Shown here piece by piece: positions 3,752 to 40,813 of a DNA stretch of 45,054 nucleotides. Within the stretch, counting starts at the first letter, position 1. Each line of letters opens with the position of its first letter. The DNA is taken from sequence record PZ445537.1; one strand, written 5' to 3'. The DNA comes from a phage. The notes beneath the pieces are model-generated. The model was not told the origin of the DNA. It saw nothing but the letters and a program-made list of their open reading frames with translations, and ran no database searches. The translations under genes and the position numbers were made by a program.

Positions 3752-4078
3752 ATGGCTAAGAACTATGCGCAGGACGGGAAAACGATCCCTCTGGTAAACG
3801 GCGGTGCAACCGATGTTCACAGCGGCGACCCGGTTGTTGTTGGAAAACTTATCGCGGTGGCAATTACCGATATCCCGGCTGGCGATACCGGGGACGGTTT
3901 TACTGAGGGTGTTTTCCTTCTGCCAAAAGTAACCGCAGATGCGGTTACTGCCGGGGCGCAGGTGTATCTGAAGGACGGCAAAATCACGATCGAAGAAACG
4001 GACGCCGTTGCCGCGGGCATCGCCTGGGAAGATGCAGGGGCAAACACCACCGTTGTTGAAGTTAAGATCAATGCCTAA
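3752..4078 (+). CDS. DUF2190-like small head protein (putative decoration/cement protein)
   Basis: 108 aa starting MAKNYAQDGKTIPLVNGG, Gly/Ala/Thr-rich; lies immediately after the capsid gene where lambda has D/FI. Family name is from memory. Confidence 0.6.
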   Translation: MAKNYAQDGKTIPLVNGGATDVHSGDPVVVGKLIAVAITDIPAGDTGDGFTEGVFLLPKVTADAVTAGAQVYLKDGKITIEETDAVAAGIAWEDAGANTTVVEVKINA

Positions 4079-19309: not shown

Positions 19310-20131
19310 AGCGCCACAGCCAACTTCGGAAGCCTCGAGATCGGAGCCAAAAAACCTTCTTCAGCAAGCTTTGTTGATTTCCATTTTCTTGGCACCAACG
19401 ACTATGACGCGCGCATCCTGTGTGGTGGTAATTCTAATGGTGCCATGGGGAAAGGGGACTTCACTTTTTACGCGGGGAAATACGTTTTTATCGGCGATAG
19501 CTTTGAGTTTCGCAACCCCATTACCTGTCAAAATAGCATCAGCGCATCTGCAAAAATAGCGACCACTGCTGATATGGAATGCAAAACTAAAATCGCTGTT
19601 TTGGCACCGGCTGACAATCAAAATGCCCATGTATGGTTCTATGGCACAGGTGGGGCATCCAGGGGGGTTATTTATTCCGGGCAAACAGGAATTATTCAGA
19701 TCCGTCCCGACAATAATGATAACGGCGGCTCCAACGGATACTCTTTTGCATTTGGGGCCGATGGTAAGTTTACCTGCGTCACGATGAACCAGACCTCAGA
19801 TGAGCGAGTAAAATTCGATAAAGAGCCCGTCAGTAACGCTCTGGAGAAGATTTGTTCCCTGACGGGTTATACGTTCGGCATTCAGCTCACAGAATCTGAG
19901 TCGGTACGTAGCGCAGGCATCATCGCACAGGAACTGGAGCAGGTTCTGCCGATCGCTGTGAGTTCTGGCGGCACCGGAACAACACCTGCAGGAGAGGAAA
20001 TTAACGATCTCAAAACCGTGGACTACAGCGCAATGAGCGCCCTCTACGTTGAGGCAATCAAGGAATTAACCAACCGGTTGAAAAGTGTTGAGAGCGAACT
20101 TACTGCAATACGTGACCGCTCAAACGCTTAG
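19301..20131 (+). CDS. silent tail fibre distal cassette B with C-terminal intramolecular chaperone (S74-like) domain
   Basis: 276 aa counted from TTG inside S4; no RBS or ATG; frame opens right at the crossover site; C-terminus has the self-cleaving chaperone signature (SDERVKFD...GIIAQELEQVLPIAV...VDYSAMSALYVEAIKEL). Confidence 0.7.
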   Translation: MGDSATANFGSLEIGAKKPSSASFVDFHFLGTNDYDARILCGGNSNGAMGKGDFTFYAGKYVFIGDSFEFRNPITCQNSISASAKIATTADMECKTKIAVLAPADNQNAHVWFYGTGGASRGVIYSGQTGIIQIRPDNNDNGGSNGYSFAFGADGKFTCVTMNQTSDERVKFDKEPVSNALEKICSLTGYTFGIQLTESESVRSAGIIAQELEQVLPIAVSSGGTGTTPAGEEINDLKTVDYSAMSALYVEAIKELTNRLKSVESELTAIRDRSNA

Positions 20132-20781
20132 TTTCTTGTCTTATCTTCTAAAGCCCCGACGCGGATTGCCAGGGCTTTTATCGCGGCCAGCGCATCGAGC
20201 AACATGGGGGTCTGGTCGAGATGCAGCAGGCCGCCAATATCTTTGACGTATTCAGGGTCGATAGTTTCAATCTGCTGAGATATCACCCCGCGCCGTGGGG
20301 TCTGCGTTTCATCATCCTTAAAAGTGAAGTGTTTGAACTCCATCCGTGAAATGTTGCCCAGCGCCTCTTCTGGATCGAGGTCGTCACCAATATTTTTCAT
20401 AATTCTGTCTGAAACTGCAGACGTCATTATCTCCTTCCATGGGCTCCATGTATCAGTGTTGTAACCCCTGAAAAAAAACCTTCCCGCATCAGTTTTGTTG
20501 GCATACGGCAAGCAGAACTGCGTCAAGGCTACATCAGGAATACGAACATAATTTTGAACATACCCATACCAGCTGGTGATAGGTCCTGAAGTTGATTTCG
20601 CCATATCTAACAGCAAACGATATGTACCAGGTTCAGTCAGGGCATTGAAATTTGTCCCGTCAGGAGCAACTGCCATATCTGTTTTAAAGGCTCTGGCATC
20701 ACCAGTTGGCAACCCGAATGCCCCCACCTGCATGACGTTCCCGGCTGCGCCGCCTGCATCCAGCGTGGCGCTACTTCCCAA
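20128..20781 (-). CDS. silent tail fibre distal cassette C (inverted) with chaperone-like C-terminus
   Basis: 217 aa on the minus strand beginning inside site S2 (GLGSSATLDAGGAAGNVMQVGAFGL); C-terminus resembles an S74-type chaperone domain (SDRIMKNI...GVISQQIE); stop codon overlaps cassette B's stop tail to tail. Confidence 0.7.
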   Translation of the reverse strand: MGSSATLDAGGAAGNVMQVGAFGLPTGDARAFKTDMAVAPDGTNFNALTEPGTYRLLLDMAKSTSGPITSWYGYVQNYVRIPDVALTQFCLPYANKTDAGRFFFRGYNTDTWSPWKEIMTSAVSDRIMKNIGDDLDPEEALGNISRMEFKHFTFKDDETQTPRRGVISQQIETIDPEYVKDIGGLLHLDQTPMLLDALAAIKALAIRVGALEDKTRN

Positions 20782-20798
20782 ACCGACCTTTATTCACC
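20773..20798 (-). other. invertase crossover site S2 (inverted relative to S1)
   Basis: Minus-strand sequence GGTGAATAAAGG-TC-GGTTTGGGAAGT; 23 of 26 nt identical to S4. Confidence 0.7.
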
Positions 20799-21527
20799 TT
20801 CATCCGTAGTCATTGCCAGTTCTGTGGCCCTGAGTTTTTGGTTGTACAAAGAATCGGCAGGCATCTCGACACGGACGGACAAAAACTGGTCATGGGGGAT
20901 ATCGACCGGATCGCCATTGTTGATACCCAGCAGTTCGTTCCTGGCGAACGCTGGCGCGTCAGGATACGTGCGGTGAAAGGTTTTCACCAGCACCGAGCCG
21001 TCAGCGTTAACCTCATAATCCAGCCAGATCAGCGGCTGCTTGTTACGGTCTGTAGGAATGTCAAAACCGCCATCGATTCCGCCCCAGGCTGCGTCAGAGT
21101 TCAACCCTTCACACCCTTCGATAAGATACTGCCCTACGTCCAGACGGATGACCTTTATGCCTTCGGATTCATCATTGGTTTGGTATGCACCATCCGAAAA
21201 TACTTTCACCACAGGCGATGCTGCTTTCAGTGTGCCATCGCTGGCCCTCGTGGTATTGCCCGTGGTGTAAGCCTCCTGATATGACCAGGACGTGCCACCG
21301 TAATACGAAAACCACGTCCGCCTTAGAATGTAGGCCTGATGAATACGGGTTGGTCGGCTGCCCCGATTGACGACTATAGACGTAATACCGGTATTTGCAG
21401 TTAACCCGAGCTGGGTCTGTCCGTCATTTTGATGGGAGGAGAAACAGGTCGGTGTAAATGCGTCCATAGCGTCCAACAGTGGGCCGTCTCCGTTGATAGT
21501 TCCAAGCCCAAATGCGCCCACTTGCAT
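20790..21527 (-). CDS. silent tail fibre distal cassette D (inverted)
   Basis: 245 aa from ATG 21527; the same frame stays open upstream to site S3 (…LGSSATKDVGTTAGNIMQVGAFGL); C-terminal ~130 aa (NDESEG…DEGE) nearly identical to cassette A, forming a long imperfect inverted repeat. Confidence 0.75.
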   Translation of the reverse strand: MQVGAFGLGTINGDGPLLDAMDAFTPTCFSSHQNDGQTQLGLTANTGITSIVVNRGSRPTRIHQAYILRRTWFSYYGGTSWSYQEAYTTGNTTRASDGTLKAASPVVKVFSDGAYQTNDESEGIKVIRLDVGQYLIEGCEGLNSDAAWGGIDGGFDIPTDRNKQPLIWLDYEVNADGSVLVKTFHRTYPDAPAFARNELLGINNGDPVDIPHDQFLSVRVEMPADSLYNQKLRATELAMTTDEGE

Positions 21528-21657: not shown

Positions 21658-22212
21658 ATGCAATATGGGTATGCAAGGGTATCAACTTTTGACCAAAATC
21701 TTGAATTACAGTTAGAGGCGCTAAATCGGTCAGAATGTGACCAGATATTTGAGGATAAAATATCCGGAGCGAAGTCAAAACGTCCTGGCCTGGATAAGAT
21801 GATGAAGTTATTGCGGCCAGGTGACACCGTCATCGTCTGGAAGCTAGACCGGCTCGGTCGATCACTCATACACCTCGTCGATTTACTGCGCTATTTCCGG
21901 GCTAATAATATTGAATTTGTCTCAATCACTGAGGGAATAAGGATCAGCACGTCAATCGGCAGATTCGCATACACAATGTTGAGTGCTGCGGCTGAGATGG
22001 AAAGAGAAAATATTATTGAAAGAACAAGGGCAGGTTTAGCCGTGGCAAGGGCAAAAGGGAGAATAGGTGGGAGGCGTCCAAAGTTAACACCAGAACAATG
22101 GGCGCAGGCTGGGAGATTAATATCAAACGGCGTGGATAGAAAACAGGTGGCAATAATTTATGATGTGGCTGTATGCACGCTTTATAAAAAATTTCCGGTG
22201 GGGCAGGCTTAA
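21658..22212 (+). CDS. serine recombinase, DNA invertase (Hin/Gin/Cin/Pin family)
   Basis: 184 aa; N-terminal catalytic motif YARVSTFDQ; RPGL…GDT-VVWKLDRLGRS block matches Hin as recalled; C-terminal HTH; sits just outside the invertible segment as gin/cin/pin do. Confidence 0.9.
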   Translation: MQYGYARVSTFDQNLELQLEALNRSECDQIFEDKISGAKSKRPGLDKMMKLLRPGDTVIVWKLDRLGRSLIHLVDLLRYFRANNIEFVSITEGIRISTSIGRFAYTMLSAAAEMERENIIERTRAGLAVARAKGRIGGRRPKLTPEQWAQAGRLISNGVDRKQVAIIYDVAVCTLYKKFPVGQA

Positions 22213-22254: not shown

Positions 22255-22518
22255 TTATCCATTTTGCCGGACAGTTGGGAATTCAGACGTCAGCCACATG
22301 TCGGATTCATCAAACATTTCCTCCAGCATACGGTTCAGCTTTTCCCGATCACTTTTGCTGGCATCACTATTTAAGCCGTTCGCCTGCATCGGCTTTACCT
22401 TCACTTCGGCATCAGGAAAAATCTGGTGCACCCGCTTCGTTAGTTCAGCCAGGATGATCTCTCTGGCCCCTTGGAGCCCTTCAACATTTCGCTTGTCATA
22501 AACCAGTTCAACAAACAT
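22255..22518 (-). CDS. dinI: DinI-like DNA-damage-inducible protein
   Basis: 87 aa from the ATG with RBS GAGAGGA (track ORF extends further upstream); acidic C-terminus and overall pattern fit the DinI family; promoter carries an SOS box. Confidence 0.7.
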   Translation of the reverse strand: MFVELVYDKRNVEGLQGAREIILAELTKRVHQIFPDAEVKVKPMQANGLNSDASKSDREKLNRMLEEMFDESDMWLTSEFPTVRQNG

Positions 22519-22576
22519 ACCGATCCTCTCATAAGTGAAAAATGCCTGTGCTTGATCTGATTTCATAAAAATACTA

Positions 22577-22592
22577 CTGTATATGTATACAG
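22577..22592. promoter_or_regulatory. LexA (SOS) box within divergent promoter
   Basis: CTGTATATGTATACAG (CTGT-N8-ACAG) embedded in the minus-strand promoter TTGACT-17 nt-TATTTT for the dinI-like gene; also directly upstream of the plus-strand ORF at 22618. Confidence 0.7.
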
Positions 22593-22617
22593 TCAATAAG
22601 CGAGTGAGGGTGCGTTC

Positions 22618-22857
22618 ATGCCTCGTCAACCGGATATTCGTGCTGCTTTTATTGCGGCCATACAGCAAAACCCGAAGGGCTATCTCTGCCTGCATACAGA
22701 CAGATTCATCACTGAACTGCAGGAGAGGCACTGGCATTTCAGCCAGGCGGATGCAAATTCATGGATCGAACGATACCAGCCAGACTTCGCCGATAAGACG
22801 ACAAACGGAAGTGAGAACCGATACTGGATCCTGCGTAACATGGGGAGGGTTTTCTAA
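22618..22857 (+). CDS. hypothetical protein
   Basis: 79-aa ORF with RBS GAGTGAGGG; divergent from the dinI-like gene across the SOS box. Confidence 0.45.
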   Translation: MPRQPDIRAAFIAAIQQNPKGYLCLHTDRFITELQERHWHFSQADANSWIERYQPDFADKTTNGSENRYWILRNMGRVF

Positions 22858-23177
22858 TGGGGTTTCCATCGCCAGCCATGGATTACCAGGAGCAGCGCAT
22901 GACGATAGATGTTATCTGCGGTGTAGATAACAACTGCCGGGTTATTGAAACTTCATGCGGCTGGGCCGTTATAAACGTCAGTCTTAAGCCAGAAGGAGGG
23001 GATACGTTGCTGGTTAGCATGGACGGGAGAAACCAGTTCGTGAAGCTAATGGGCCACGCCCTGATCACTCAAGATGGTGAAGCGATAGAAGGGGAAGCTT
23101 TGAATGACGTAATGGTACACGGCGTTCTTACACATACACTTAACCAAGTAAAAGACGATAAATCGCCTGTAATGTAG
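22857..23177 (+). CDS. hypothetical protein
   Basis: 106-aa ORF starting at an ATG that overlaps the upstream stop (TAATGG). Confidence 0.45.
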   Translation: MGFPSPAMDYQEQRMTIDVICGVDNNCRVIETSCGWAVINVSLKPEGGDTLLVSMDGRNQFVKLMGHALITQDGEAIEGEALNDVMVHGVLTHTLNQVKDDKSPVM

Positions 23178-23249
23178 CGTGTAAATGTCGGGGATTATTC
23201 CCCCATTTTTCCCCAATGATTCCCCGTACAAATTTCAAACATAAAAAAA

Positions 23250-23272
23250 CCAGCCATAAGTGGCTGGTTTTG
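23250..23272. terminator. bidirectional intrinsic terminator next to attP core
   Basis: A-run, hairpin CCAGCCATAAGTGGCTGG (23250-23267), then TTTTG; on the minus strand it lies just 3' of the tRNA fragment. Confidence 0.6.
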
Positions 23273-23282
23273 ATAATAATTT

Positions 23283-23328
23283 TGGTCGGCACGAGAGGAT
23301 TTGAACCTCCGACCCCCGACACCCCATG
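23283..23328 (-). other. attP core: 3' ~46 nt of a tRNA gene (tRNA-Pro-like)
   Basis: Minus strand reads CATGGGGTGTCGGGGGTCGGAGGTTCAAATCCTCTCGTGCCGACCA: anticodon-arm remnant, T-arm and acceptor 3' strand with CCA, but no 5' half. Identity to tRNA-Pro is from memory. Confidence 0.6.
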
Positions 23329-23384
23329 TCACTGCGTTAAAGCCGCTGCAACCCTTGTAAATACTGGTGCTACGGCATGTTTGA

Positions 23385-23400
23385 CTGTATATGCAAACAG
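23385..23400. promoter_or_regulatory. second SOS-box-like palindrome near attP
   Basis: CTGTATATGCAAACAG (CTGT-N8-ACAG) preceded by TTGACT and followed by ATTTTT, closely paralleling the dinI promoter; no obvious downstream ORF. Confidence 0.4.
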
Positions 23401-23464
23401 TGCATTTTTTGCAAAATCCGCACTATATACATCAATGAGTTACGGGTAGGTTTTTCCCCATACA

Positions 23465-24652
23465 TCACCCGGCTTTAAAGACAATTTCAGCATGAGGAAC
23501 TTCTACCCATTCAACATGATTCTGGGTATAAATTTTTGTCGATTTTGCATCACTATGGGCCATCCTTGCCTGCGGATCGATACCTTGTCTTTCGAAAATA
23601 TGAGCCGCCAGCGCTCTAATCTCGTGGAAAGTTGGCCTTTCTTTGATAGGTAATTCTGCCGCTACACCTATCCGGTCCCGCAGCTCTGAAAATGCTCTGC
23701 TCAAATAATCAGGGGCCACCTGTGTTGGGTGGTTAACTTCCTTGCTTATAGGATTGCTTCTCTTTTCCAGAAGCCGGTGAACAACATAAGGACTGGCCAC
23801 ATTGTCTCTGCTGTTGTCGATGATCTCTTTCAGGGCCCTGCCGATCGGAATGGCAACGTGTGAGGCCTCTTTGTGCTGCACTTTTTGCCGATGAATGTAA
23901 AGCGTTCCGAATATTCCAGCCTCTTCCTGATCTAACCATACACATCCGCAAACCCCTTCTTTAGGTTCCTTGATCGAGTACCGGATCCGGGAAACTTCCA
24001 GGCGCGCTTGCGTAGTTTGTATTGCAAGGTCCATTGCAGTCTTCAGCCAAGGTTCAGCAGCTGCATGTATGGCCAGGAACTGCTCCAAAGTAAGTCGCCG
24101 GCGGACCTTTTTATCGACACGCCGCATTTTTTTCCGTGTTGCAGGATTATCCATCATTAGCGATTCATCCACAGCATAAGAGAATAGCTTTTTCAGGAAG
24201 CTAACTTTTCGGTTCTGAACATTGGCCGACGATTCAGAATGGTAATTTCGTATGTAGGCATTTACGTGCTCAAGCTCAATGTCACACGCGGGTATGTTAT
24301 TAAAAAATTCTTTAACCCTGATGGCATCATTATTCCAATCGTCAAGTGTGCTTTTAGACGGCTGCTCATCTTTGATCGCTCTCTCCATAATGCGATCAAC
24401 ATGTTCAGAAAACGGGTGGGCTTCACCATTAAGCCCTCCCGATTCCCGAATTAATGAATCTATCGATGGTGTGTTTTCAGGGCGCATCCTCAGGTTATAT
24501 TCTCGGGCGATGGCGATAGCCATTACTCGATCCGAACCGAGAGTTTTCTTTTTCCCAGTTATAAGCGTGAACTTATACACGCCACGATCTTTATCAAAAA
24601 AAAGATAATCAGGAAGGTGGCGGTATTCTTTTTTTCGTGGCCTTGCTGCCAT
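23465..24652 (-). CDS. int: tyrosine integrase (lambda Int family)
   Basis: 395 aa from ATG 24652 (RBS GAGGG; track start 24658 is TTG); C-terminal catalytic region HEIRALAAH…RMAHSDAKSTKIYT fits the R-H-R-Y pattern; adjacent to the attP core. Confidence 0.95.
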   Translation of the reverse strand: MAARPRKKEYRHLPDYLFFDKDRGVYKFTLITGKKKTLGSDRVMAIAIAREYNLRMRPENTPSIDSLIRESGGLNGEAHPFSEHVDRIMERAIKDEQPSKSTLDDWNNDAIRVKEFFNNIPACDIELEHVNAYIRNYHSESSANVQNRKVSFLKKLFSYAVDESLMMDNPATRKKMRRVDKKVRRRLTLEQFLAIHAAAEPWLKTAMDLAIQTTQARLEVSRIRYSIKEPKEGVCGCVWLDQEEAGIFGTLYIHRQKVQHKEASHVAIPIGRALKEIIDNSRDNVASPYVVHRLLEKRSNPISKEVNHPTQVAPDYLSRAFSELRDRIGVAAELPIKERPTFHEIRALAAHIFERQGIDPQARMAHSDAKSTKIYTQNHVEWVEVPHAEIVFKAG

Positions 24653-24654
24653 GG

Positions 24655-24864
24655 TCAACCCTCAATTATTAACTGACGTACCGCCTGATTAACAATTGAG
24701 TCAACTCCCCACTTTTCGGTTTCATAGACAAAAACTGAACCATCTACAATCCTTCCCATGAGTAATCCGTTTTCGACCCAACGTTTAATTGTACGGTTGT
24801 CAGGAATGGAGTCTTTAGTAAACTCGCGCTTACTCCAGAGACTCGCTTTCATTAGCTTTGCCAT
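24655..24864 (-). CDS. xis: excisionase-like protein
   Basis: 69 aa from ATG 24864 (RBS GAAGGA); TIKRWVENG…GSVFVYETE resembles the Xis DNA-binding fold; stop abuts the int start. Confidence 0.65.
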   Translation of the reverse strand: MAKLMKASLWSKREFTKDSIPDNRTIKRWVENGLLMGRIVDGSVFVYETEKWGVDSIVNQAVRQLIIEG

Positions 24865-25493: not shown

Positions 25494-26246
25494 TTATATT
25501 TCAAATGCCATTTGAGGCATGAAACGATCACGATCTGCGTCGTACTGCAATGAGCTGGCACTGTTGTATGCCTCTATGCGCTCAACCAGAACCGCTGCTC
25601 GTGTTTCTTTGCTTGCAGGCGCGTAGGCTGATTTATCCCATGCCTTGTCGATGCCAATATTGCGCGCCACGTTTGTACTGTCAGCTGACGACAGCGGGAT
25701 GTGACGGAATATATCGGCGTTAAGCATGCGCAGGCCATGAAGCTTTGTTATGGGGTAACCATTATTGTCGACAACATGCCGTATAAGATCTCGCAATTTT
25801 GCCCTGCATGAGCGTGGACGTTTCGCGTCGTATTCACCCATGCTACCGATGCATACCCTGGGGAATTCATGGCATAAGCGGATGAAACGCTCGTCAGGCT
25901 CGTTGAAGTGGTAAACTGGCGCGCCGACAACCTTACCGTGCGGCCATTCAGCTATTAACGCATCATTCTCTTCACTGGTCCCGCCGATCACGTCAGGGAT
26001 AACAGCAAAAGCAAAGCGCGGGTGATTCAACCAGCGGCCCACAAACTCGTAGTAATCATTCCAGTTAACAACGCGCTTTTTTGTCCAGAAGCTGAATGCG
26101 CCGTTATCCAGCGCAAAAGACTGGGTGACTTCGCTTGCAAGAGCTAATTGACCTGGATTAGCGAAGGAAATAAAAGCGTGCCTGCCTTTCCACGCCTTCA
26201 GTGCGCATGTATCAGGGGTTATTGGCCCGCCGTGAAAATGTATCAT
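25494..26246 (-). CDS. conserved hypothetical phage protein
   Basis: 250 aa from the ATG in ATGA overlap with the upstream TraR-like gene (track ORF extends to 26303); no motif recognised. Confidence 0.55.
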   Translation of the reverse strand: MIHFHGGPITPDTCALKAWKGRHAFISFANPGQLALASEVTQSFALDNGAFSFWTKKRVVNWNDYYEFVGRWLNHPRFAFAVIPDVIGGTSEENDALIAEWPHGKVVGAPVYHFNEPDERFIRLCHEFPRVCIGSMGEYDAKRPRSCRAKLRDLIRHVVDNNGYPITKLHGLRMLNADIFRHIPLSSADSTNVARNIGIDKAWDKSAYAPASKETRAAVLVERIEAYNSASSLQYDADRDRFMPQMAFEI

Positions 26247-26470
26247 CCTCCACCCCTGCGCTGTCTCTGCATTATTTCTAAATATTCCTGGCAACTGGCG
26301 CACGTTTTGCAGCCAGGCATTGCAACCCGGCGCGCCTCAGGAATGTCCTCTCCGCATTCAGAACAGTGCTCTGCAGAGACTGCATTCTGATCAATACGGT
26401 GTTTTTGTATGGCCAACTGCAGGCGGTGCTCTAACAGCTCGTTTGCCTGATCGATGATGTCTGAACTCAT
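26243..26470 (-). CDS. TraR/DksA-family C4 zinc-finger protein
   Basis: 75 aa with CSECGEDIP…GCKTCASC (CxxC-N17-CxxC) typical of phage TraR-like proteins. Confidence 0.7.
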   Translation of the reverse strand: MSSDIIDQANELLEHRLQLAIQKHRIDQNAVSAEHCSECGEDIPEARRVAMPGCKTCASCQEYLEIMQRQRRGGG

Positions 26471-39760: not shown

Positions 39761-40813
39761 ATGAAAAATACTGTAAATATAAACAGTGTTGAGCTTGTCA
39801 ACGCTGACTGCCTGCTATACCTCGCAACCCTCCCAGATAACACCATTGACCTTATTGTTACGGATCCGCCGTACTTCAAAGTGAAACCCAACGGCTGGGA
39901 CAATCAATGGAAAGGGGATGAGGATTATCTTCGCTGGCTTGATATGTGCCTCGCACAATTCTGGCGAGTGCTAAAACCTGCTGGCAGTCTTTATCTTTTC
40001 TCCGGTCACCGCCTGGCGGCAGACATTGAGATCATGATGCGTGAGCGGTTCAACGTCCTGAACCACATCATCTGGGCTAAACCGTCGGGCCGCTGGAATG
40101 GCTGTAATAAAGAGAGCCTGCGCTCTTACTTCCCTGCAACAGAGCGCATCCTCTTCGCTGAGCATTACCAGGGGCCGTATAAACCAAAGAGCGACGGTTA
40201 CGCGGAGAAGGGAAGCGAGCTGAAGCAGCATGTAATGACTCCCCTAATTTCTTATTTTCGGGATGCACGTGAAGCGCTTGGCATATCCTCAAAACAAATA
40301 GCCGATGCGACTGGAAAGAAGAACATGGTGTCTCACTGGTTCAGCGGTAGCCAGTGGCAATTACCGAATGAATCAGATTACCGGAAGCTTCAGTCCCTTT
40401 TCACGCAGGTAGCCATCGAAAAGCACCAGAACGGCGAACTGGCAACACCACACCACCAGCTGGTGGCTATGTGGCATTCGTTGAATCGCAAGTATTCAGA
40501 GCTGCTCGAAGAGTACAAATCACTTCGGCGGCATTTCTCTGTTTCCGTATCCGTTCCTTATACCGACGTCTGGACACATAAACCCGTTCAGTTTTATCCA
40601 GGTAAACACCCATGCGAAAAACCCGCTGACATGTTGCGGCAGATCATCAACGCCAGCAGTAAGCCTGGTGATGTGGTGGCTGATTTCTTTATGGGGTCCG
40701 GTTCGACCGTGAAAGTCGCGCTGGAACTTGGCCGCCAGGCTATTGGCGTTGAACTCGAAGAGGAAAGGTTTAATCAGACGATGGGGGAAATACGGGCGTT
40801 GGCAGGGGAATAA
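39761..40813 (+). CDS. DNA methyltransferase (N6-adenine/N4-cytosine, beta class)
   Basis: 350 aa; catalytic motif VTDPPYF near the N-terminus and AdoMet motif FFMGSGST near the C-terminus. Confidence 0.85.
   Translation: MKNTVNINSVELVNADCLLYLATLPDNTIDLIVTDPPYFKVKPNGWDNQWKGDEDYLRWLDMCLAQFWRVLKPAGSLYLFSGHRLAADIEIMMRERFNVLNHIIWAKPSGRWNGCNKESLRSYFPATERILFAEHYQGPYKPKSDGYAEKGSELKQHVMTPLISYFRDAREALGISSKQIADATGKKNMVSHWFSGSQWQLPNESDYRKLQSLFTQVAIEKHQNGELATPHHQLVAMWHSLNRKYSELLEEYKSLRRHFSVSVSVPYTDVWTHKPVQFYPGKHPCEKPADMLRQIINASSKPGDVVADFFMGSGSTVKVALELGRQAIGVELEEERFNQTMGEIRALAGE

Follow-up and report, generated by a model that had tools for sequence, protein, structure and literature searches.

A tRNA-Pro(GGG) gene fragment with trailer and terminator in the predicted attachment site of an Escherichia phage

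Why does a phage genome carry the last 46 nucleotides of a tRNA gene, without the 5ʹ half, with a terminator directly behind the fragment and an integrase gene directly beside it? We addressed this question for the window, by which we mean the whole 45,054-bp stretch of phage DNA analysed here. The searched region of the window was 100% identical to Escherichia phage Eeyore (PP925821.1), whose record gives river water as the source and E. coli as the host, and a second phage record, Flotzy, matched the window at 97.7% identity. Because the same stretch stands in both the Eeyore and the Flotzy records, the site is contiguous in phage genomes.

A first-pass annotation had placed the phage attachment site (attP) at 23250–23464. 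The location was borne out, but the span proved too narrow, as the arm repeats and the conserved blocks of the P arm put the functional site at about 23190–23471. With a probability of about 0.9, we read this region as the attP used by a tyrosine integrase of the lambda (arm-binding) type, whose target is E. coli proL, the gene for tRNA-Pro(GGG). The order on the minus strand is small ORF, integrase gene (int), P arm, core, trailer, hairpin and Pʹ arm (Table 1).

The GenBank record of Eeyore carries neither an attP nor a tRNA-fragment feature, and a literature search under the phage names Eeyore and Flotzy returned no relevant report and no experiment on Eeyore. Two minus-strand hypothetical proteins of about 30 aa are annotated there instead, CDS0009 at 3791–3883 and CDS0010 at 3926–4021 of the record (window 23235–23327 and 23370–23465). 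CDS0009 covers the tRNA fragment and terminator and CDS0010 covers the P arm; both are probably spurious ORFs over attP. Two further features of the neighbourhood were recorded. A minus-strand gene at 25494–26303 is a queuine tRNA-ribosyltransferase according to PP925821, with no Pfam family at E ≤ 0.01. On the other side, a Gin/Cin-type DNA invertase gene (21658–22212, plus strand) adjoins oppositely oriented tail-fibre segments (20128–21527, minus strand), which suggests an invertible host-range switch near attP.

Table 1. Features of the predicted attachment site and the adjacent genes (window coordinates)
Feature	Coordinates	Strand	Remarks
Pʹ arm, three candidate GGGGAA arm-type sites, 11-bp spacing	23195–23226	−	repeat family D1
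Predicted intrinsic terminator	23243–23271	−	11-bp stem (23246–23271) and 7-T run (23243–23249) overlapping four terminal A-T pairs
A/U-rich trailer AAAATTATTAT, then C (base 23271)	23272–23282	−	between CCA and hairpin
attP/attB identity block, 49-bp common core	23280–23328	−	base-by-base comparison of attP, attB (K-12), attL and attR (CX21)
3ʹ 46 nt of proL, tRNA-Pro(GGG)	23283–23328	−	standard positions 31–76, ends CCA; no 5ʹ half
Anticodon loop ATGGGGT, presumed crossover region (7-bp overlap)	23321–23327	−	flanked by GACA/TGTC symmetry
LexA-box-like palindrome GACTGTATATGCAAACAGTG	23383–23402	+	CTGT-N8-ACAG in P arm, 23385–23400
IHF-like site CATCAATGAGTTA	23430–23442	+	12/13 to WATCAANNNNTTR; conserved as ATCAAnnnnTTA
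P arm, single candidate arm-type site GGGGAAAAA	23451–23460	−	~125 bp from core, just 3ʹ of int stop codon
Tyrosine integrase, lambda-type arm-binding N-domain	23465–24658	−	ATG at 24652 per PP925821 and RefSeq
69-aa ORF, candidate excisionase	24655–24864	−	ends 2 nt before int ATG

The proL fragment and the junctions in lysogens

The minus strand from 23328 to 23283 reads CATGGGGTGTCGGGGGTCGGAGGTTCAAATCCTCTCGTGCCGACCA. This 46-mer was identical at 46/46 positions to linear positions 32–77 of proL in E. coli K-12 (b2189), a gene with the anticodon GGG that is flanked by lapC/yejM and yejO. With the anticodon at proL position 35, the fragment begins with the final base of the 5ʹ anticodon-stem strand (standard position 31) and comprises the whole anticodon loop, the 3ʹ anticodon stem, the variable loop, the T arm, the 3ʹ strand of the acceptor and CCA. 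The 31 nt of the proL 5ʹ half were absent from the window, ARAGORN found no tRNA in the whole window, and Rfam gave no tRNA match over the region even at E ≤ 10. The earlier claim that the 3ʹ part of a tRNA ending in CCA stands here without its 5ʹ half was thus confirmed, and the tRNA-Pro that the first-pass annotation had suggested as the host gene was matched exactly, specifically as proL.

Ungapped identity with the host extends three nucleotides (three A) beyond CCA, giving 49 bp (23328–23280). An exact host match of 46–49 nt cannot have arisen by chance, and strand exchange must fall within this block. The 46-mer matched all of the 5,426 complete E. coli genomes searched, as would be expected of a conserved tRNA gene, and about 290 additional copies of the fragment were found across the same genomes.

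Three other signals in the region were rejected. Some relatives show an acceptor-like GGCGCGG in the P arm, and a hidden 5ʹ half or pseudo-tRNA there was dismissed by ARAGORN and the Rfam tRNA model. Rfam matches to HPnc0260, rnk_pseudo and STnc370 scored below the gathering thresholds and were driven by the T arm or the terminator hairpin. The inverted repeat I4, in which the 8-mer TGTCGGGG (23186–23193) is complementary to part of the core, was at the chance level for an 8-mer in 400 bp.

The junctions of integrated relatives could be read directly. In E. coli CX21, a sister prophage of ~45 kb lies in proL, with copies of the 46-mer separated by 45,154 bp, which agrees with the length of the window. 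At its attL (L004), yejL, yejM and an annotated 77-nt tRNA-Pro are followed by the phage Pʹ arm with the hairpin, and the phage side continues with homologues of orf79 and the umuD-like gene, dinI, invertase and tail-fibre genes. At attR (L002) the order is exonuclease, small ORF, integrase, P arm, 46-mer, host terminator, yejO and narP. Compared base by base, attL changes at the core from host sequence to the phage Pʹ arm, and attR changes there from the phage P arm (1 mismatch in 150 nt) to host sequence. Matches to the P and Pʹ arms were likewise ~45 kb apart in ECONIH4, EC09 and mussel isolates; 12 of the 15 best Pʹ-arm matches in E. coli overlapped an annotated tRNA-Pro, and a genome of Enterobacter wuhouensis had the identical attL design with an intact tRNA-Pro(GGG). 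In CX21 and further genomes, an intact tDNA and a displaced fragment stand as direct repeats bounding an element with a tyrosine integrase, the pattern by which a tDNA-targeting attP is recognized.

The prediction that the 46-mer would flank related prophages as a direct repeat was therefore correct for the ~45-kb prophages of E. coli, and so was the prediction that integration regenerates an intact tRNA: in CX21 the intact tRNA-Pro lies at the junction with the phage terminator and the displaced fragment lies beside int. The first-pass annotation had named two contrary outcomes, a fragment with no matching host tRNA gene and junctions mapping elsewhere. Neither occurred, the match being to proL and the CX21 junctions lying in proL.

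As a mechanism, we propose that Int would bring the 49-bp core together with its identical counterpart in proL and that integration would split the gene. The host would retain the promoter and the first 31 nt, and the phage would contribute the remaining 46 identical nucleotides, the A/U-rich trailer and an intrinsic terminator, such that attL would again hold a monocistronic proL transcription unit. Next to int at attR, the displaced 3ʹ fragment of the host gene would be left without a promoter, together with its native terminator. Knowing the attP predicts the locus of the lysogen, proL between yejM and yejO, and provides primers for lysogen detection.

The site also accounts for a recurrent annotation. 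At the int-side junction, NC19-type elements (L001 3103–3180; NZ_CP076654.1 1681792–1681869) and ~100 other E. coli genomes have a 78-nt ‘tRNA-Pro’ in RefSeq. In NC19-type elements this PGAP call is composed of the displaced 46-mer and P-arm sequence, and ARAGORN and the Rfam tRNA model speak against a tRNA; no complete cloverleaf was found by ARAGORN at attR-type junctions, where the Rfam tRNA model was also negative. The proL attP explains such calls at the int-side junctions of some RefSeq E. coli genomes. Misannotation of tRNA fragments of this kind has been described (PMC9897764).

Copies of the core occur in other arrangements as well. An 84-kb contig (IMGVR_UViG_2916441648_000002; L055 and L057) has two related integrases ~42 kb apart, each followed by a proL core, an arrangement suggestive of two prophages in tandem at proL. 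A relic composed of a proL 3ʹ fragment, the terminator and GGGGAA repeats was found in a prophage next to ssrA in E. coli strain 1500 (L091 3503–3650), and one of the same composition in Gifsy-2 near sseI (L093 ~1600–1730; NC_010393 44211–44334). These relics in prophages elsewhere point to swapping of a module made up of int and the P arm. Since core, terminator and arm repeats can persist as a relic at other sites, the presence of the fragment alone is no proof of activity.

Trailer and terminator of the rebuilt gene

On the minus strand, the hairpin (23271–23246) reads AAAACCAGCCA-CTTA-TGGCTGGTTTT, with a 4-nt loop and a folding energy of −15.8 kcal/mol (z = −4.9). The plus strand folds equally well (−16.3 kcal/mol) and is then followed only by TTTTGATAATAATTTT; a terminator scan called the hairpin on the minus strand only. 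Judged by these features, the hairpin would terminate well on the minus strand and less well on the plus strand, where it would also face an SOS-box-controlled operon of orf79 and a umuD-like gene (22618–23177) that it could plausibly stop. The first-pass annotation had called the terminator bidirectional. Its position directly 3ʹ of the fragment was as described; termination in both directions is plausible but asymmetric, such that this part of the call is borne out in part.

The same annotation had regarded the terminator as the phage's own. The phage does carry it, but not as an independent element. The trailer hairpin of K-12 proL reads AAAACCAACC-CTTAC-GGTTGGTTTTTTTAT, and the phage and K-12 trailers agree at 42/63 aligned positions, with an alignment score of 18 versus −10.8 ± 4.7 (maximum 7) in 2000 shuffles. 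A hairpin of the proL-terminator family was present 10–15 nt past CCA in 13/13 phage-type Pʹ arms from relatives. Across 14 distinct versions of the hairpin, 94.7% of cells were paired, and one stem pair is G-C in 9 versions and A-U in 5, with zero mismatches. Further, in one phage/host pair (attP of L072, attR of L073), the terminator was identical in the phage and the host flank. By this comparison, the phage hairpin is a homologue of the proL terminator, a diverged copy whose stem has been kept by compensatory changes across the family. The site is therefore best described as a copy of the entire 3ʹ part of the proL transcription unit, which in Eeyore has diverged from the E. coli version past the first 49 bp.

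Native proL is monocistronic and ends in a Rho-independent terminator with a 12-bp stem (−15.3 kcal), which RNase E removes by cutting directly after CCA in an AU-rich stretch (PMC5291269). The phage trailer at 23272–23282 may be where RNase E would cut as the 3ʹ end of the rebuilt proL transcript matures, and the trailer AAAUUAUUAUCAAAA together with a hairpin of equal strength would preserve both the RNase E cut and termination. It is mildly instructive that the phage copies more than the end of the tRNA, adding an A/U-rich trailer and a terminator of similar strength, which fits the unusual RNase E-dependent 3ʹ maturation of proline tRNAs.

In a scan of the genome collection, the exact 27-nt hairpin occurred at three loci only, one Enterobacter attL and two Planctomycetota MAGs (L089 3279–3305 and L090 4814–4840, the latter just after a tRNA-like 3ʹ end). 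The Planctomycetota copies are probably coincidence or contamination.

Integrase, arm sites and the P arm

The integrase matched Pfam PF09003 (Arm-DNA-bind_1) at 28.1 bits (cut-off 22), PF00589 at 26.8 bits, just under the gathering cut-off of 27.1, and the integrase family PHROG_1 at 2.8e-31. Its gene is transcribed toward attP and ends at 23465, directly beside it. The earlier placement of int/xis immediately next to the fragment stood for int, with its integrase domains; for xis, the support consists of its location and its conservation in the family.

An ORF comparable to the small one in the window stands directly upstream of int at 74 out of 80 related loci, and the motif PDNRTIKRW is invariant among them. 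The ORF of the window had no Pfam or PHROG family, no true sequence match in PDB and no recognisable Xis or winged-helix domain. Apparent PDB matches were WD40-repeat artefacts, in which many sub-threshold matches to a short motif are summed. An alignment with lambda Xis by hhalign covered residues 6–45 at a probability of 2.9%, and a single-sequence AF2 model had a pLDDT of 53.8 and was unreliable, with a helix-helix-hairpin-helix pattern. By its position next to int and its conservation in the family, we treat this ORF as a candidate excisionase.

For the arms, relatives were gathered by integrase similarity (73–100% identity). In the window, the copies of the Pʹ-arm repeat read as TTCCCC on the plus strand at 23198–23204, 23209–23214 and 23220–23225, and the exact 10-mer TTTTTCCCCA has two copies in 45 kb, both in attP. 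Among relatives the positions of the arm motif were kept and its sequence shifted with the integrase clade (GGTGAAAC, GGTAAA, GGGAATAAC), while the P and Pʹ motifs within any one element always matched. Such co-variation with the integrase clade is the behaviour expected of arm-type sites, as which we predict these repeats to serve. Int would bind the GGGGAA repeats in both arms, and IHF would bend the P arm. The exact IHF consensus WATCAANNNNTTR was not found in attP; the block ATCAAnnnnTTA was conserved in an alignment of 23 distinct P arms of the family, as were the palindrome CACTGTTTGnnTATACAGT, CCAG and GCGG-TT.

The P arm also contains a LexA-box-like palindrome, which agrees with the LexA consensus 20-mer at 15/20 positions; three patterns of the CTGT-N8-ACAG type occur in the window against 0.47 expected. 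The pattern was kept in 20/23 family P arms, 71–72 nt from the core, and a copy is also present at L001 3055–3082. In E. coli NC19 a promoter (10/12) has its TTTACT and TATAAT on either side of the palindrome; this promoter is directed away from the core and toward two cargo genes, which are located between attP and int. The equivalent frame in the window is TTGACT-16-CATTTT (8/12, with a degenerate −10) and has no cargo gene, and a promoter scan of 22600–24000 found no sigma-70-like site. The palindrome could be the LexA operator of an att-embedded promoter or an excisionase site, the latter being equally possible because it is located where lambda has Xis/Fis sites. That it is a real LexA site in attP/attR, gating an att-embedded promoter or directly affecting assembly of the excisive or integrative intasome, seems doubtful to us. 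If it were, recombination or moron expression would be coupled to DNA damage independently of the phage repressor, and a gated promoter would fire away from the core, toward int or cargo genes. A literature search turned up no earlier description of a LexA box within an attP.

Other SOS-related features were observed nearby and in relatives. A near-consensus LexA box, TACTGTATATGTATACAGTC at 22575–22594, lies between a dinI homologue (22255–22566, minus strand) and the divergent orf79/UmuD-like operon. Two other proL elements (L006 and L007) have umuDC-like and SOS-peptidase cargo. A third LexA-box-like site, TACTGTAAATATAAACAGTG at 39769–39788, overlaps the start of a 350-aa ORF, which we read from sequence as a putative DNA methyltransferase.

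Crossover position, rival explanations and known systems

Within the core, we think it probable that strands are exchanged in the anticodon-loop 7-mer ATGGGGT at its left end. The left edge of host identity was fixed at ...G(T/A)|CATGGGG in 23/23 distinct P arms, and identity from the anticodon stem-loop through to the 3ʹ end is the class A signature of Islander, with the site falling in the class A sublocation. Alternatively, exchange at a proL attP might take place in the T loop or where T stem and acceptor meet, the remaining identity being merely carried along. About half of the tDNA islands in Islander use T-region sites (1836 J versus 2083 A; PMC4383910), and the 49-bp identity in the E. 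coli data has no internal marker, such that the exchange point is not placeable inside it. Against this, a T-region crossover would need no anticodon loop, with which identity nevertheless begins in every one of these P arms. One relative, L074, has a P arm nearly identical to that of L072 joined to a different downstream arm, and its two compensatory T-stem differences go with the downstream arm and not with the P arm; exchange would therefore have occurred 5ʹ of the T stem, a hint that comes from an element whose integrase is 75% identical and that assumes a tandem-array history. A T-region crossover is thus improbable in our view, and exchange in the anticodon loop is preferred.

The remaining rivals concern what the hairpin and the fragment are for. 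The hairpin folds as well on the plus strand as on the minus strand, and the orf79/umuD-like moron operon, with a LexA box in its promoter region, ends 70 nt before it; the hairpin could thus be conserved mainly as the terminator of this operon, or as a 3ʹ end signal of int, with tRNA termination incidental. We hold this to be unlikely, as only the minus strand has a strong T run, the hairpin is a homologue of native proL terminators and is retained in Pʹ arms with unrelated cargo (L006, L007 and L088), and a second plus-strand hairpin at 23190–23203 lies nearer to the operon end. Conservation of the hairpin could be owed in part to the plus-strand operon. Much less probable is that the fragment is the inert remnant of an earlier attP, like those in Gifsy-2 and the ssrA prophage of strain 1500, and that the phage integrates elsewhere or never: relics with core, terminator and arm repeats are known at other sites, but here a complete P arm, matching arm sites and an integrase are all adjacent, and prophages with a 99–100% P-arm match sit in proL with both junctions intact. 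Hardly credible is an origin of the fragment as host DNA from aberrant excision or mis-assembly, or as a degenerate phage tRNA gene unrelated to integration. The fragment is indeed identical to host sequence, with a trailer similar to that of the host; the arrangement is nevertheless common to two phage isolates and many IMG/VR contigs, phage-specific arms flank the fragment on both sides, and a tRNA-like 5ʹ half was absent from every relative examined. We accordingly retain the reading of the region as an attP for proL.

As such, the arrangement is of a standard kind, the lambda-type attP in the class of anticodon-centred tDNA sites; its mechanism and its site, proL, were already known, and it leaves current understanding unchanged. 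The mechanism of integration into tDNA is reportedly well known from Reiter in 1989 and Williams in 2002. The Islander paper sets out the general tDNA-integrating scheme and the class of anticodon-centred sites (PMC4383910), and proL is a listed prophage site in O121:H19 E. coli (PMC8767318).

As in lambda, int runs toward an adjacent attP of about 250–280 bp and encodes an integrase with an arm-binding N-domain, three tandem arm-type sites lie in Pʹ, an arm site and an IHF-like site (here predicted) lie in P, and a small ORF is found just upstream of int. Unlike lambda, which uses the intergenic gal-bio site, the phage has a tRNA gene as its target, and its core identity is 49 bp, compared to 15 bp in lambda. 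Its arm motif GGGGAA is unrelated to that of lambda, and an extra LexA-box-like palindrome stands where lambda has X1/X2/F sites.

Anticodon-centred integration is exemplified by P22 in thrW and pSAM2 in tRNA-Pro. Like other phages and islands of this class (PMC4383910), the phage holds in its attP the tDNA from the anticodon stem-loop to the 3ʹ end, and the gene is regenerated with the displaced 3ʹ fragment as a direct repeat. Nothing essential sets it apart from them, except that here the host copy runs on, diverged, through the RNase E trailer and the terminator. With other proL prophages and islands in E. coli and relatives it has the core in common, and in three of them (L006, L007 and L088) the hairpin and GGGGAA repeats are also present; their cargo differs, and their integrases are 73–100% identical. 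The group of NC19 and L024 is unlike the window in having cargo genes between int and attP. Finally, tRNA-dependent mycobacteriophages also integrate into a host tRNA gene (PMC10865867), but there the gene is not rebuilt and a complete phage tRNA gene compensates, whereas the present phage lacks a tRNA gene of its own and restores the one it interrupts.
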